Shown piece by piece: positions 22,968 to 51,563 of a DNA stretch of 64,000 nucleotides (positions within the stretch are counted from its first letter, which is position 1; every line of letters starts with the position of its first letter). This stretch comes from Ignavibacteria bacterium (lineage in GTDB: Bacteria; Bacteroidota; Ignavibacteria; Kapaibacteriales; Kapaibacteriaceae), in NCBI GenBank assembly GCA_947458785.1, contig CANGZU010000001.1:4269-68268 (forward strand). The letters are read 5' to 3'. Both the position numbers and the translations under genes were made by a program. The notes under the pieces were generated by a model. That model saw nothing but the letters and a program-made list of their open reading frames with translations. It was not told the DNA's origin and did no database searches.

Positions 22968-23060
22968 TCGTCATTCGTCATTGGTAATTCGTCATTCGTC
23001 ATTGGTAATTCGTCATTCGTCATTGGTAATTCGTCATTCGTCATTGGTAATTCGTCATTA
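22968..23060. repeat. perfect 21-bp tandem repeat x4.4 (TCGTCATTCGTCATTGGTAAT)
   Basis: read directly; each unit contains two TCGTCATT octamers; fills the intergenic space immediately 5' of the Rieske gene. Confidence 0.95.
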
Positions 23061-25069: not shown

Positions 25070-25393
25070 ATGAGTACCTACATCGTTAATCCTGTCAAGG
25101 TCCGCATGGACGAGTCTGCAAAGGGCTCGATCTATAAGTCTATCGTTGCCATGGGCTTACGCTCACGTCAGATCAACGACCAGATCAAGACACAGATCTC
25201 CGAGCGCCTTGCCGACGTTATCGTCGACACGGACGAGGCGGAAGGTCCAAATGCAGACCAGATCGCAATCAGCAAGGAGTTTGACCTTCTTCCGAAGCCT
25301 ACGTTCTTGGCGATGAAGGAAATGACAGACGGTCAGATCCATGTCCGCACGGAGCCGCTTCCAGTTGCAGCTCCTTTGGTAGCAGAGGAATAA
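25070..25393 (+). CDS. rpoZ: probable DNA-directed RNA polymerase subunit omega
   Basis: 107 aa; SIYKSIVAMGLRSRQIN resembles the omega core; conserved rpoZ-coaBC linkage. Confidence 0.5.
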   Translation: MSTYIVNPVKVRMDESAKGSIYKSIVAMGLRSRQINDQIKTQISERLADVIVDTDEAEGPNADQIAISKEFDLLPKPTFLAMKEMTDGQIHVRTEPLPVAAPLVAEE

Positions 25394-25453
25394 CCAATCC
25401 ATGAAGTTGAGGAAGAGCCATCCGGTCTGTGCCGAGATGGCTCTTGTTGTCTT

Positions 25454-26707
25454 ATGAACATCCTGCTTGGAATAACCGGAAGCGTTTCGGCCTACAAAAC
25501 GCCATGGCTTGTGCGAGATCTGCGCAAGGCCGGCCACGACGTGCGCGTGGTGATGACTCCATCTGCCCGCCAGTTCGTAGCGCCACTGGCCCTGGAGGCG
25601 GTATCACTGCATTCGGTGATCATCGACCCCTACGATCCAGCAATTCAGCAAGGGGGCTCATGGCACGTGCATCTTGCTCAGTGGGCCGATTTGATCTTGA
25701 TCGCCCCTTGCTCAGCAACGACGTTGGCACGCCTTGCCACAGGGTTATGCGACACAGCTCTCATGACTGTTGTCTGCTCACGGACAGCCGACACTGAGCT
25801 GATCGTGTTCCCGGCCATGGACACCGACATGTGGCTGCAACCATCGACCAAGCGCAATGTTGAACAACTGCGCGCTGACGGCATCACCGTTGTAGATCCA
25901 GACTCAGGCGAGCTTGCTTCCGGACTGATAGGTCAAGGCAGACTGCCAGAGATTGGGAAGATCGTTGGGATAGTAGCGAGTGCCGAGTACCGAGTGCCGA
26001 GCAGCGAAGTTGGTCGTCCTCGCGAAAGCGGGGACCCAGCACTCGGAACACGGCACTCGGCACTCGGCACTCGGAACTCGCTGCTTATAACCGCTGGTCC
26101 CACCCATGAACGCATTGATGCCGTACGCTCGATCGTAAATCATGCCACGGGTACAATGGGATTTGCACTTGCAGAAGCTGCACAGAAGCGTGGGTACCTG
26201 GTGACGCTTGTGACGGGTCCAACAAATCTTCCAGCACCATTTGGCGTGGAACGCATAGATGTTGTGAGCGCACAAGAGATGTACGAAGCAGTGATGAAGC
26301 ACAGAGATGTGGACGCATTCATCATGGCGGCAGCAGTGGCTGACTTTACCCCATTGAAGCCGTCACAGCAGAAGATCAAGAAGGAACAACTCGGCGATAC
26401 TCTTTCGATAGAGCTTACCCGCACCCACGACATTCTCGCAGAGATCGGCAAGGGTAAGACAGAACGTCAACGCGTTGTCGGGTTTGCTCTCGAATCCGAC
26501 GACGTCGTCGAGAACGCGAAGCGAAAGCTCGCAACGAAGAGTGCAGACATGATTATTGCCAATCAGGCAGGCGTGCCGAACAGCGGGTTTGGCGGCGGAC
26601 AGAATACCATAACGATCGTTACGAATGGTTCGGATCCAAAGACCTATCCGGCGATGTCGAAACGCGCATGTGCCGAGGTGATCCTCGATGCATTGGAGAA
26701 CCTGTGA
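25454..26707 (+). CDS. coaBC: bifunctional phosphopantothenoylcysteine decarboxylase / phosphopantothenate-cysteine ligase
   Basis: N-terminal flavoprotein domain; LLITAGPTHERIDAVRSIVNHATGTMGFALAEAA CoaB signature; linker lengthened by a repeat element. Confidence 0.9.
   Translation: MNILLGITGSVSAYKTPWLVRDLRKAGHDVRVVMTPSARQFVAPLALEAVSLHSVIIDPYDPAIQQGGSWHVHLAQWADLILIAPCSATTLARLATGLCDTALMTVVCSRTADTELIVFPAMDTDMWLQPSTKRNVEQLRADGITVVDPDSGELASGLIGQGRLPEIGKIVGIVASAEYRVPSSEVGRPRESGDPALGTRHSALGTRNSLLITAGPTHERIDAVRSIVNHATGTMGFALAEAAQKRGYLVTLVTGPTNLPAPFGVERIDVVSAQEMYEAVMKHRDVDAFIMAAAVADFTPLKPSQQKIKKEQLGDTLSIELTRTHDILAEIGKGKTERQRVVGFALESDDVVENAKRKLATKSADMIIANQAGVPNSGFGGGQNTITIVTNGSDPKTYPAMSKRACAEVILDALENL
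25975..26085. repeat. imperfect palindromic element: arms of GCCGAGT/ACTCGGC heptamer repeats around a CGCGAAAGCG tetraloop core
   Basis: read directly; in-frame within the coaBC interdomain linker (encodes ...AEYRVPSSEVGRPRESGDPALGTRHSALGTRNS...). Confidence 0.85.
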
Positions 26708-28638
26708 TAACACTATCGAACATTACTGTTGACTTTGGCACACGCGTGCTGTTCAAGGGCGTCAGCTTTCTGATCAAGTTTGGAGACCGTATTGGTCTTG
26801 TTGGACGCAATGGGGCTGGGAAGTCGACCATGCTCAGCATCATTGCCGGGGAGCGTCAAGCAACCTCAGGCGATGTATCACGTCAAAACGGTATTCGCGT
26901 TGGATTCCTCTCCCAGGACCTTACGCTCGACATCACCAAGACCCTGCGTGAGACGGCAATGCAGGCCTTCGAAGAGGTGCTTGCCCTGCACGACGAGATC
27001 GATCGCATTCAGCATCAGCTCGAGACACGCAGAGATTATGAGACCGACGACTACATGAAGCTCGTGCAGCGTCTTACAGATGCTAACGATCTCTATGCTC
27101 GGCGTGGAGGCCTTACGATGCAGGCAGACATTGAGCAGATCCTTACCGGTCTTGGTTTCGAACGCGAACAGCTAGACAATCCACTGACCATGTTCTCAGG
27201 GGGCTGGCAGATGCGAGCAGAACTCGGGCGATTGCTGCTGCAACGTCCAGACTGTCTCTTGCTCGACGAGCCAACAAACCACCTTGATATCGACTCCGTT
27301 CGATGGCTCGAGGATTTTCTCTCGAACTACGAAGGCGCCGTTGTCCTGATCTCGCACGATCGTACGTTCCTGGACAACATCACGAATCGCACGATCGAGA
27401 TCACGAAGAACAAGGTCTACGACATCCCTGCATCGTACTCCGAGTATGAAGAGATACGCGCTGAACGCATGGAACAACAAAAGGCTATTGCGGCTAGACA
27501 GGGCCGCGAACGTGAGCGGATGCAGAAATGGATCGACCGCTTCAAGTACAAGGCCTCCATGGCCTCACGCGCGCAGTCCCGCATCAAAGCGCTTCAGCGC
27601 ATGGATGTCGTAGAGGTCGATGATCAAGACACATCGTCAATTCACTTCTCGTTTCCAGCTGCACCACGCTCCGGTCGTGTAGTCGTTGAATGCACAAACA
27701 TCCAAAAGAACTACGGCGACAAGCGTGTTCTCAGAGGTGTAGACTTCGTGCTCGAGCGCGGTGAGAAGATCGCGTTTATCGGAAAGAACGGCGAGGGCAA
27801 AACAACGCTAGCCAAGATCATCGCCGGCGTAGAGCCCCTTTCCGGAGGCGACATCCAAGTAGGTCATGCCACCTCGATTGGATACTATGCACAGCACCAA
27901 GCAGATCTAATGGACGGACATCAGACAGTCTATGAGATTATGGAGCAGGCCTCGCCGCCAGAAATGCGCTCGCGCCTGCGCACGCTGCTTGGAGCCTTTT
28001 TGTTCAAGGGCGACGACATAAACAAACGTGTTGGGGTGCTGAGTGGAGGCGAGAAGTCACGTCTTGCTCTGGCGCGATTGCTGCTGCAGCCATACAACCT
28101 ACTGATTCTTGATGAGCCCACGAACCACCTAGACATGCTCTCCAAGGAGGTTCTCAAGGAAGCCCTTCTTGCCTACGACGGGGCCATGATCGTGGTCTCA
28201 CACGACCGTGACTTTCTTGACGGACTTACGGAGAAGATCATCGCCTTCCGTATGGGTACGCTCAAAGAGTACGAGGGAGATGTTGATGCATATCTCAAGC
28301 TTCTGGGCGACCCCCGTGTGCAGGATGCCCCGCCCCCTGCTGAGATCCCTCTCAAGCATGCCCCAGCTGCCGAGGACAAACCAGCCGTGCTAAGCCGCGA
28401 GGAACAAAAGGCTGTTGAACGGGAAAAGCGCAAGGCGGAGCGCAGAATCGCCGAGATCGAAAAGCAGGTTGGGATTCAGGAAAAGATGATTGCAGATCTC
28501 GAAGCAACACTTGCAGACCCAGAGCTCTACAAAGACCCGGTGAAGCAGCACAAGAGTGTGACATCCTACGACACTGCAAAGCGCGTGGTAGCGTCTCTGA
28601 TGGAAGAGTGGTCATCACTCATGGAAGTCCTTCAGTAA
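26704..28638 (+). CDS. ABC-F family ATPase (tandem ABC domains, no TMD)
   Basis: two Walker A (GRNGAGKST, GKNGEGKTT), two LSGG signatures and a helical linker; GTG start overlapping the coaBC stop. Confidence 0.85.
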   Translation: MITLSNITVDFGTRVLFKGVSFLIKFGDRIGLVGRNGAGKSTMLSIIAGERQATSGDVSRQNGIRVGFLSQDLTLDITKTLRETAMQAFEEVLALHDEIDRIQHQLETRRDYETDDYMKLVQRLTDANDLYARRGGLTMQADIEQILTGLGFEREQLDNPLTMFSGGWQMRAELGRLLLQRPDCLLLDEPTNHLDIDSVRWLEDFLSNYEGAVVLISHDRTFLDNITNRTIEITKNKVYDIPASYSEYEEIRAERMEQQKAIAARQGRERERMQKWIDRFKYKASMASRAQSRIKALQRMDVVEVDDQDTSSIHFSFPAAPRSGRVVVECTNIQKNYGDKRVLRGVDFVLERGEKIAFIGKNGEGKTTLAKIIAGVEPLSGGDIQVGHATSIGYYAQHQADLMDGHQTVYEIMEQASPPEMRSRLRTLLGAFLFKGDDINKRVGVLSGGEKSRLALARLLLQPYNLLILDEPTNHLDMLSKEVLKEALLAYDGAMIVVSHDRDFLDGLTEKIIAFRMGTLKEYEGDVDAYLKLLGDPRVQDAPPPAEIPLKHAPAAEDKPAVLSREEQKAVEREKRKAERRIAEIEKQVGIQEKMIADLEATLADPELYKDPVKQHKSVTSYDTAKRVVASLMEEWSSLMEVLQ

Positions 28639-28659: not shown

Positions 28660-29364
28660 ATGTTTCGCATTCTGGCTGTATCTATCATAACGTTGATTAT
28701 TATCCTGCCAGCTCACGCTCAGGATCAAAAGACTCAGCGTCAGATCTCTATGGATGGCGAAGCGTCGATGATGGTAGCTCCTGATATGGCTAGCATATCT
28801 ATTGGTGTTGAAACGGAAGGCACAGGCATTGCTGATATCAAACGCGACAACGATCAGCGTGTATCATCGATCTATGAAGCTGTGAAGGGGCTTGGCATTC
28901 CAGACAAGGATATCCAAACCAGCGAGCTCTCAATTCAGCCTATCTATGACTACTCCAGCAAGCGTCGCAAATTCCTGCGGTACGAAATGCGCAATGTTGT
29001 TGCCATCACGGTGCGCAAGCTCGACATCATTGAAAAGGTCATCAACGCGTCGGTTCGTGAAGGCAGCAACGTGCTCGAGGGAGTGCACTTCATCGTGTCG
29101 AATCGTGATGCATTAGTTGATTCCCTGCAAGTAGAGGCTGCCAAGAATGCAAGCAAGCGCGCCTCAGACATTGCAAGCGCAGTTGGCGCAAAGCTTGGTA
29201 AGGCACTAACAATCGCTGCGTCGAGAGGAGAAGTCCCTGAGCCGATACATGGTCGAAGAGCCTTTGCCATGATGGCTGATGGAGGGGGCGAAGCTTCAAC
29301 ACCGGTGTCAGGTGGCGAGATGAAGCTTCGTTCGTCGGTAAGTATTACTTTTGAGCTCGAATGA
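28660..29364 (+). CDS. SIMPL/DUF541 periplasmic protein
   Basis: signal peptide and overall pattern of 26 kDa periplasmic immunogenic protein family. Confidence 0.6.
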   Translation: MFRILAVSIITLIIILPAHAQDQKTQRQISMDGEASMMVAPDMASISIGVETEGTGIADIKRDNDQRVSSIYEAVKGLGIPDKDIQTSELSIQPIYDYSSKRRKFLRYEMRNVVAITVRKLDIIEKVINASVREGSNVLEGVHFIVSNRDALVDSLQVEAAKNASKRASDIASAVGAKLGKALTIAASRGEVPEPIHGRRAFAMMADGGGEASTPVSGGEMKLRSSVSITFELE

Positions 29365-36265: not shown

Positions 36266-36552
36266 AGATAGTCGCGTGATATATTTGCACGCCGATGTAG
36301 TTGCTGTCGCTAATCACGGCAGCACATTGAGGGAAGCACGCGAGAATCGTGCACGGTTGCGCCGCCGTAACGGCAGACGATCCTACCTAGTCCTGAGAGG
36401 ACAGTCACTGCGTGTGTGTTGATGACACAATGCGGGAAGACGGTTGGAGAGGATGAAGCCGAAGTCGGAATACCTGCTACATCGATTTCTACAACTGGAG
36501 ACGCTGTCTCCTCTGTCGCGCATCACGACAGACAATACTCAAGGGGCTTGCC

Positions 36553-50834: not shown

Positions 50835-51563
50835 TTACTCCGCAGAGCTACCGTCGGCTGCTGGAGCGTCGGCTGCTGGAGCGTCGGCTGCTGGAGCGTC
50901 GGCTGCTGGAGCGTCGGCTGCTGGAGCGTCGGCTGCTGGAGCGTCGGCTGTATCAGCAGGTGCTTCTGCTGCAGGAGCTTCTGCTGCAGGTGCTTCGACC
51001 ACTGGCGTCTCTTCTACAATGGCCTCCTCAACGACCGGGTCTTCTACAACGACCGGTGCAGGAGCTACTGCCACTGGAGCTGGCTTTGGCTTGGCTGCTG
51101 GCTTCGGCTTGGCTGGTGTCTTCGCTGCGGCACGGCGCTTCGTAGAAGATGATCGGCCATCAACCGGATTTGACCAGTCGACAAGCTCAATCATCGCCGT
51201 CGCTGCGGCATCACCACGACGAAGCCCAAGCTTCGTAATGCGTGTATAGCCACCATCGCGCTCTGCCACAAGTGGAGCGATCGTATCGAACAGCTCCTGC
51301 AGCACACCCTTGTTCTTGATGAAGCGTCCTACCATACGGCGGTTGTGAACGTCAACGCCGGTGATGGCGCCTGACTTCTCCGACCGATGCGCATTGCGTG
51401 CACGTGTGATAAGCTGTTCAGCAAATGGACGGAGTTCCTTGGCCTTCGCAACTGTTGTTACCAGACGCTTGTGCTCGAACAACGATGTTGCCAAGTTCGC
51501 AAGCAACGCGCGCTTGTGGCTCGCTGTGCGCTTGAGTTTCCGACCTGCATACCCATGTCGCAT
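50835..51563 (-). CDS. rplQ: 50S ribosomal protein L17 with long Ala/Pro/Lys-rich C-terminal extension
   Basis: N-terminal about 120 aa canonical L17 (MRHGYAGRKLKRTASHKRALL...); C-terminal about 120 aa low-complexity tail ending in 6x APAAD. Confidence 0.9.
   Translation of the reverse strand: MRHGYAGRKLKRTASHKRALLANLATSLFEHKRLVTTVAKAKELRPFAEQLITRARNAHRSEKSGAITGVDVHNRRMVGRFIKNKGVLQELFDTIAPLVAERDGGYTRITKLGLRRGDAAATAMIELVDWSNPVDGRSSSTKRRAAAKTPAKPKPAAKPKPAPVAVAPAPVVVEDPVVEEAIVEETPVVEAPAAEAPAAEAPADTADAPAADAPAADAPAADAPAADAPAADAPAADGSSAE
50854..50950. repeat. six perfect 15-bp tandem repeats (TCGGCTGCTGGAGCG) inside the rplQ 3' end
   Basis: read directly; encodes (APAAD)6 on the minus strand; a second degenerate 15-bp repeat family follows (GCAGGTGCTTCTGCT). 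Confidence 0.95.

Follow-up and report, generated by a model that had tools for sequence, protein, structure and literature searches.

A palindromic heptanucleotide repeat in the CoaC-CoaB linker of coaBC in an Ignavibacteria lineage

We analyzed a 64-kb stretch of DNA from an Ignavibacteria bacterium (GCA_947458785.1, contig CANGZU010000001.1; hereafter the window), in which the coaBC gene carries an imperfect palindrome of 7-nt repeats between the regions encoding the CoaC and CoaB domains. The element belongs to a class of 7-nt tandem arrays that is common in this Ignavibacteria/Kapabacteria-type lineage. We consider it probable that the element is a palindromic heptanucleotide microsatellite that is tolerated in the CoaC-CoaB tether, prone to slippage, and exchanged by recombination. 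Replication slippage would change the copy number of the arrays. Inverted duplication or template switching between the arms, the latter a process known for quasipalindromes, would create and partly maintain the palindromic form at the DNA level, and short-patch homologous recombination between related lineages would replace cassettes. The protein would tolerate whatever linker peptide of 31-81 amino acids (aa) results, and the strong mRNA or DNA hairpin would be a by-product without a selected function.

Architecture of the element and its place in CoaBC

The host gene coaBC occupies 25454..26707 on the + strand and encodes 417 aa, as assigned from the list of open reading frames (ORFs), Pfam, and a match in the Protein Data Bank (PDB). 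Pfam places the Flavoprotein domain (CoaC) at residues 1-175 and the DFP domain (CoaB) at residues 208-389 (E = 1.5e-32 and 7.3e-66, respectively), and the best PDB match is CoaBC from M. smegmatis (6TGV; E = 4e-55). Known bacteria have CoaBC as an essential enzyme encoded in single copy. With 61 homologues as input, AlphaFold gave a model with a mean pLDDT of 85.6. The pLDDT was below 50 exactly at residues 179-206, and the rest of the model was confident. The low-confidence segment sits between the last helix of CoaC (167-178) and the first strand of CoaB (209-214), and the model suggests that this tether is presumably flexible or disordered.

The whole imperfect palindrome spans 25972..26085 on the + strand (114 nt; codons V174-L211), as defined by the inverted repeat (I1), the RNA and DNA folds, and the AlphaFold model. 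This confirms the location given in an initial annotation of the DNA (25975-26085). The left arm (25972..26006, +) consists of five 7-nt units, in register AGTAGCG, AGTGCCG, AGTACCG, AGTGCCG, and AGCAGCG. The right arm (26039..26085, +) consists of six, GCACTCG, GAACACG, GCACTCG, GCACTCG, GCACTCG, and GAACTCG, followed by CTGCT. Arms were delimited by unit parsing and by Tandem Repeats Finder (period 7/14 on the left and 7 on the right), which reported period-7 arrays at 25972-26001 (4.3 copies) and 26039-26080 (6.0 copies). Both arms thus hold at least three head-to-tail copies of a 7-nt unit, as expected of heptanucleotide simple sequence repeats (SSRs). The arms of the inverted repeat (25972-26001 and 26056-26085) are 30 nt each, with 90% complementarity. 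At the centre (26016..26035, +), fold and motif position identified an 8-bp stem (GTCCTCGC/GCGGGGAC) closed by a GAAA tetraloop, in agreement with the GNRA-type stem-loop first described there. The copy counts in the initial annotation needed adjustment. Of three annotated CCGAGT[GA] copies in the left arm, two are exact (25983 and 25990), accompanied by two neighbours with one mismatch (GCGAGTG and CCGAGCA), and the four to five CACTCGG copies of the right arm comprise four exact ones (26040, 26054, 26061, and 26068), the others being degenerate units.

RNA fold prediction returned structure far beyond chance. A 131-nt stretch folded at -78.6 kcal/mol (z = -9.0), and none of 200 shuffles was equally stable; the DNA fold of the element reached -42.8 kcal/mol (z = -6.9). 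The palindrome is the sole long hairpin of the window. When searched with up to two mismatches, a 14-mer double-unit motif (CACTCGGCACTCGG) gave eight matches in the window against 0.66 expected, all at the coaBC locus. The cassette core CCTCGCGAAAGCGGGG occurs once in the window; GTCGTCCTCGCGAAAGCGGGGACC is an example of a cassette-core sequence.

As initially annotated, the element lies in frame within an intact 417-aa ORF, and by the Pfam domain limits and the AlphaFold model neither catalytic domain is disrupted. The palindrome has its middle in the low-confidence tether, and the few outermost base pairs take up codons from the helix and strand on either side, the right arm extending into the codons of a conserved S-L-L at the start of CoaB. 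With both domains undisturbed, the initial description of a structured repeat that a coding linker tolerates is supported. The array is placed 192-235 codons inside the stop-free frame that spans coaBC, counted from either end, rather than in the intergenic or 5'-leader positions typical of heptanucleotide SSRs. We measured linker length from the conserved motif GRLPEI to LLITAGPT. This stretch is 42 aa in the window, 25 aa in 6TGV, and 20-26 aa in some distant homologues, and the nearest Ignavibacteria-type relatives without repeats have 30-37 aa. The annotated lengthening by about 20 aa therefore holds only against short linkers such as that of 6TGV; relative to the nearest repeat-free relatives, the difference is about 6-12 aa.

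Cassette types at the coaBC site and their exchange

We fetched 208 loci for comparison. The closest genomes are metagenome-assembled genomes (MAGs) of uncultured Ignavibacteria/Kapabacteria-type bacteria from lakes and similar sites, and repeat linkers are present in all 33 of the 33 closest CoaBC proteins (72-100% identity). One type of linker peptide reads (SSEQRxA)n followed by SLLAARCS (lengths of 39, 46, 53, 60, and 67), and another reads (DILPERA)n between VGASRWLAR and ASHRLAPT (46, 53, 60, 67, 74, and 81). A third type reads SGEWRVES...PLSTLHS, and the window type reads ASAEYRVPSS...ALGTRHSALGTRNS. All of these peptides are 7-nt units read in frame, with the reverse-complement units of the far side likewise in frame. 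Within a cassette type, lengths change in steps of 7 aa (21 nt, three units), and none of more than 35 variants of the coaBC linker is frameshifted. Because coaBC must stay in frame, only three-unit changes are seen. Copy number varies between close relatives in two cassette types, as it does in heptanucleotide SSRs.

At the DNA level, palindromes with differing units occupy the same coaBC site in 14 relatives (L001-L004, L006, L018, and L201-L208; L001 is CAZAGH01, L202 is CAYNKR01 of GCA_964397835.1, and L201 is scaffold_23 of ERZ28593956). AGTGCCG units are found in the window, L001, and L213; AGTGGAG units in L206 and L018; and AGCAGCG/AACAGCG units in L002, L003, L201, L203, L204, L205, and L208. 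L006 has an ACGGAAT-type palindrome, and L004 and L207 have a 26-nt inverted repeat enclosing 21-mers. The arms may be lopsided, as in L002 (about 26 units versus 4). The minimum free energy (MFE) per nt of the palindromic cassettes is mostly -0.42 to -0.65 kcal/mol. In repeat-free relatives it is -0.26 to -0.36 kcal/mol, a range that includes the short palindrome of L006 (-0.33). In more distant lineages (L014, L015, L016, and L024), this linker holds short repeats of other kinds that are not palindromic. The idea of a strain-specific insertion, for which an alignment of orthologs had been proposed, is not borne out, as palindromic cassettes, with differing units, occupy the site in all members of the clade that were sampled. 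The contigs of L018, L020, L024, and L212 end at or inside the repeats of the coaBC linker, and heptamer arrays are probably under-represented in MAGs since assemblies break there.

The history of the cassettes departs from that of the gene. In a tree of the two CoaBC domains without the linker, cassette types are interleaved. Window and L201 are 99.6% identical in the CoaC part, 99.0% in the CoaB part, and 96% over 11 kb, with cassettes that are unrelated in unit type and length (42 versus 52 aa). Their differing tract runs from linker base 12 to about 27 nt inside CoaB and includes three synonymous differences, as would be expected of a recombination patch. The reverse pattern is seen with L001 and L213, whose coaBC domains are 85-88% identical to those of the window and whose linkers differ at 2-3 of 126 nt, with an exact run of 105 nt (25949-26053). 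L202 is more divergent (77.6% over 8.6 kb; coaBC domains 76-79%) and shares an exact run of 86 nt (25961-26046), the next longest being 47 nt. By our calculation, the chance of an unchanged 86-nt run at 22% divergence is ~3e-10 per starting position. Similarly, L208 and L004 have coaBC domains that are 94-98% identical and differ in cassette type, and L004 and L207, at 75-83% in the domains, have the 26-nt arms in common.

The identical tract begins 11-23 nt upstream of the palindrome and stops within the right arm. Since the boundaries of the identical and replaced tracts do not match the palindrome ends, they argue against precise transposition. Two loci are hybrids whose arms pair poorly: L202 (2902-3036) combines a left arm and centre of the window type with an AGTGGAG-type right arm, and L212 (1-160) combines an AGTGGAG-type left arm with ten right units of the window type. 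L001 has uncompensated arm changes. The simplest account of these patterns is that short recombination patches have moved cassettes and single arms from one related lineage to another. A single ancestral insertion followed by vertical inheritance was rejected, as cassette type conflicts with the domain tree. A further run of 135 nt identical to L001 lies at 29017-29151, inside a SIMPL-domain gene, at an overall identity to L001 of 87%; this is possibly another recombination patch between the two lineages.

Heptamer arrays elsewhere and known repeat systems

Our survey took in ~430 kb of DNA from relatives, a sample in which the surroundings of coaBC are over-represented. Period-7 arrays are frequent there. 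Those that are not in coaBC occupy intergenic DNA or the ends of genes, often stopping a few bases short of a start codon. The genomes of this lineage thus carry many heptamer arrays, as do other hosts of heptanucleotide SSRs. One intergenic array in the window (22968-23059) is a perfect 21-nt repeat (TCGTCATTCGTCATTGGTAAT) of 4.4 copies, built from 7-nt units, that stops 9 nt short of the ATG (23069) of a gene for a Rieske protein with a twin-arginine signal. The orthologous leader in L001, L201, L204, L205, L208, L003, and L004 has heptamer arrays of other units, including GTAATTG, GTACCTC/GTACCTT, and CCTAGTC. Noncoding DNA of this group likewise holds inverted arrays: L024 (9483-9566) and L015 (105-134) have an intergenic palindromic pair, (AGTTACG)n ... 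(CGTAACT)n, with a fold of -42 kcal/mol, ~450 nt upstream of coaBC (start 10001). Many units share an AGT/ACT core (CCGAGTG, CCTAGTC, CCCAGTA, ATCAGTA, GGAGAGT, and CTAGTTA, from L004, L007, L008, L015, L024, and the window), as do the published heptamer units CCCCAGT, CAACAGT, and TAACTGA.

Beyond the lineage, a metagenome scan for (ACTCGGN)3 matched at least 120 unrelated contigs (L081-L200) with a GC content of 0.38-0.73, so that the arm motif is widespread as a simple repeat and does not by itself identify one particular element. These arrays come from soil, sediment, and water, often stand beside start codons, and commonly have arrays of related units nearby; an inverted partner array within 250 nt was present in 20 of 120 among the matches listed, so pairs of inverted arrays recur. 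Two unrelated bacteria have in-frame palindromes of the same unit family in other proteins. In a Usp-domain protein (L210, ~2270-2400), AGTGCCG x 4 faces CACTCGG x 4 (-99 kcal/mol), and in an EpmA/GenX-like protein (L211, ~2175-2290) AGTGCCG/AGTGCCC units face CACTCGG. The arms of both share only the simple repeat with the window, and their centres differ from that of the window, which indicates that palindromic heptamer arrays recur in tolerant protein segments and are not copies of one element.

Heptamers are the most abundant class of long SSRs and have a patchy phylogenetic distribution, as summarised from Mrazek et al. 2007 in PMC4679880. In bacteria they tend to sit upstream of start codons (PMC4679880), and cases within ORFs are rare and at tolerant positions (PMC4679880, section 15). 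MacGregor 2015 counted one inverted ('indirect') set against 169 direct sets and found repeats within ORFs mainly at protein ends (PMC4679880); TAACTGA repeats are described there from Beggiatoaceae, Cyanobacteria, and Bacteroidetes. Heptamer repeats have also been described in Nostoc (bioRxiv 10.1101/2022.06.06.494920), and we found nothing specific in the literature on heptamer repeats in Ignavibacteria.

The arrays of the present lineage resemble bacterial heptanucleotide SSRs and cyanobacterial short tandemly repeated repetitive (STRR) sequences in their head-to-tail 7-nt units, many arrays per genome, and patchy lineages. They also share arrays close to start codons (the Rieske leader array at 22968-23059, which resembles those of PMC4679880, and its orthologous sites), contigs that break at arrays, close relatives that differ in unit sequence and copy number, and rare cases at tolerated places within ORFs. 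Unlike the SSRs described, the two coaBC arrays are set opposite one another to form a long hairpin deep in an essential gene, an arrangement that is kept clade-wide while the cassette is exchanged between lineages, and an Ignavibacteria/Kapabacteria-type host is not among the lineages described. Frame-preserving steps in copy number, a disordered segment, and two untouched domains are as in coding variable-number tandem repeats (VNTRs) and low-complexity linkers encoded by microsatellites. Here, however, the coaBC unit is 7 nt, so that the viable step is three units and the 7-aa repeat is an accident of frame, and the second arm encodes a reverse-complement peptide (e.g., SSEQRAA ... LLAARCS).

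The element also resembles quasipalindrome hotspots in being an imperfect inverted repeat. In the Ripley model and in E. coli studies by Lovett and others, quasipalindrome arms reportedly tend to become complementary by template-switch copying, and such copying at the DNA level would explain why unit changes are mirrored in both coaBC arms. However, the co-variation in coaBC could largely stem from replacement of whole cassettes, and the arms of the hybrids are mismatched.

Simple heptamer repeats, like coding repeats in frame, are already known. What is new is the inverted-array hairpin in the linker of an essential enzyme, its persistence across the clade with turnover, its cassette-like exchange, and its host lineage. 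The 7-nt tandem repeats of cyanobacteria, Beggiatoaceae, and some Bacteroidetes are now also found in an Ignavibacteria/Kapabacteria-type lineage, and coaBC provides a clear case of heptamers inside an essential enzyme gene, where frame filters slippage to 21-nt steps and cassettes are interchangeable at one site. It is also a natural experiment in which the CoaC-CoaB tether accommodates any sequence of 31-81 aa, useful for understanding and engineering the bifunctional enzyme. In practical terms, the site marks strains on a very fast scale and is a hotspot where recombination is visible in freshwater populations of uncultured bacteria. There is a technical caution as well: contigs break at the coaBC repeats, and gene-based and cassette-based trees disagree.

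Pairing of the arms and alternative explanations

In a test of arm pairing, sequences were anchored on the flanking protein motifs, independently of structure. The pairing register relative to these anchors was identical in 12 of 12 sequences. In this register 86.6% of cells pair, compared with 24-49% after a shift of the partner by 1-3 nt and at most 82% in 500 shuffles. Both sides are altered in 12 of 28 pairs, a count that really reflects about four unit positions repeated periodically and few independent events (about three unit types). Folding does not systematically favour the sense strand, the antisense fold being at least as stable in about half of the sequences, and G-U pairs show no sense-strand enrichment. 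Together, the lack of a sense-strand fold bias and of a G-U excess indicates Watson-Crick complementarity at the DNA level, and these sequence patterns argue for DNA-level complementarity over a selected mRNA structure.

Several points weigh against a tolerated, slippage-prone microsatellite. Palindromy is kept in the same register across the clade, down to 72% protein identity, and this could reflect selection for the hairpin. The intergenic heptamer arrays of these genomes are mostly non-palindromic, so palindromy is not automatic for this class of repeat. The window-type cassette is without slippage variants, its linker being 42 aa in all five of five carriers (the window, P0002, P0003, L001, and L202). 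The unchanged 86-105-nt tract could in principle result from strong constraint at the nucleotide level rather than from recent transfer. Finally, we infer slippage, template switching, and recombination alike from patterns in the sequences.

The first of these points leads to a cis-acting hairpin, either an mRNA stem-loop or a DNA cruciform, that is kept by selection. Such a hairpin might delay ribosomes where the two domains meet, giving CoaC time to fold or assemble ahead of the emergence of CoaB, or it might control mRNA stability. It would fit the presence of a palindrome in every clade member despite complete turnover of the arms, the identical register with paired sides that change together, the MFE per nt below that of repeat-free relatives (L006 excepted), and the z = -9 of the window fold. 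However, the sense strand has neither a fold preference nor a G-U excess, and the centre and loop are wholly different between cassette types. The arm changes in L001 are uncompensated, arms are mismatched in the hybrids L202 and L212 and very lopsided in L002, and the nearest outgroups are without a palindrome. At gathering score, Rfam gave no match at the element, its sole match in the window being a cobalamin riboswitch (36281-36495), and a permissive scan of the element returned only sub-threshold models of generic microRNA (miRNA)-precursor hairpins (35 bits versus a gathering score of 89). There are no terminator-like sites on either strand in 25300-26800, the bases following the stem being CTGCTTATAACC, and the single promoter-like site around the element does not exceed the shuffle level. 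The cis-acting mRNA hairpin suggested in the initial annotation therefore finds no positive support, and we regard a selected hairpin as unlikely.

We hold a small mobile element to be just as improbable. Here a MITE- or REPIN-like element (MITE, miniature inverted-repeat transposable element) or a site-specific 'homing' cassette would have entered the coaBC linker and moved between genomes as a unit. This would agree with cassettes that are 98-100% identical in genes that are 78-87% identical, with a different cassette in a gene that is 99-99.6% identical, and with the same-unit palindromes that other bacteria have in intergenic sites and unrelated ORFs. REPINs are also comparable in size and long-hairpin shape to the 114-nt element, an imperfect hairpin of ~100 nt with repeated arms and evidence of identical copies spreading horizontally. 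Unlike REPINs and MITEs, the coaBC element was seen at a single locus. Neither its arms nor its core have a second copy in the window, and among the 208 fetched loci the core occurs only in coaBC of L001 and L202; it was not found in viral contigs. A six-frame peptide search returned no protein with core-encoded words, although it also missed the known positives P0001-3 and P0005; it did bring up the same-unit palindromic arrays of the Usp-domain and EpmA/GenX-like proteins and of another CoaBC fragment. One viral match to the 26-nt inverted repeat of the L004 type is an ordinary terminator-like hairpin between phage tail genes and was rejected as a chance palindrome.

The palindrome flanks (...TTGGGAT / AGTAGCG...CGCTGCT / TATAACC) show no direct repeat that would indicate a target-site duplication. 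No insertion boundary is defined at the palindrome ends, and the tract boundaries, with their upstream start and, in L201, a difference reaching ~27 nt into CoaB, suit recombination patches better than precise insertion. In addition, the arms are simple tandem repeats that recombine independently, and the palindromes of other organisms share these arms and not the centre. Thus, of the small mobile element first proposed, exchange of a cassette between lineages at the same site stands, while a second copy, a target-site duplication, and transposition were not seen. If the hairpin were nevertheless selected or mobile, it would represent a new kind of coding-compatible structured element.

A bolder reading, to which we give slightly less credence still, is that self-complementary heptamer cassettes spread as units from species to species and that the coaBC linker is their dedicated site of landing or exchange. 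It would define a protein-compatible, in-frame class of mobile palindromic element, in which the hairpin itself could be selected as a DNA recombination or replication signal or as an mRNA translation pause. It would also explain the lasting palindromy, the 86-105-nt tract that is unchanged across 13-22% divergence, and the similar palindromes in unrelated proteins.

A phase-variation (contingency) switch, in which gain or loss of a single 7-nt unit shifts the frame and turns CoaB on or off, is very improbable. CoaBC is essential and single-copy, the right arm is not followed by a canonical start codon in frame, and all of the more than 35 variants are in frame with 7-aa steps, although an assembled consensus could hide rare alleles. 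In its favour, 7 is not a multiple of 3, so that slippage by one unit would shift the frame, and a role in regulating expression has been proposed for heptamer arrays in other bacteria (PMC4679880). A chimeric or fold-back contig is least credible of all: four contigs do break at these repeats (L018, L020, L024, and L212), but an independent collection contains the identical protein (P0001, 100% identity, 6 member sequences), and ENA, NCBI, and GTDB records (L001, L202, and L213) give independent assemblies of the same cassette, with the frame intact in all.

Two features of the window lie apart from the heptamer arrays. The cobalamin riboswitch is on the + strand and full length (RF00174, 72.3 bits). 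In an ORF at 50835-51563 on the - strand, a perfect 15-nt repeat of 6.6 copies (50852-50950) encodes (APAAD)n in the low-complexity C-terminal tail of an apparent ribosomal protein L17, and further 15- and 18-nt repeats are located at 50956-50996 and 51079-51124.

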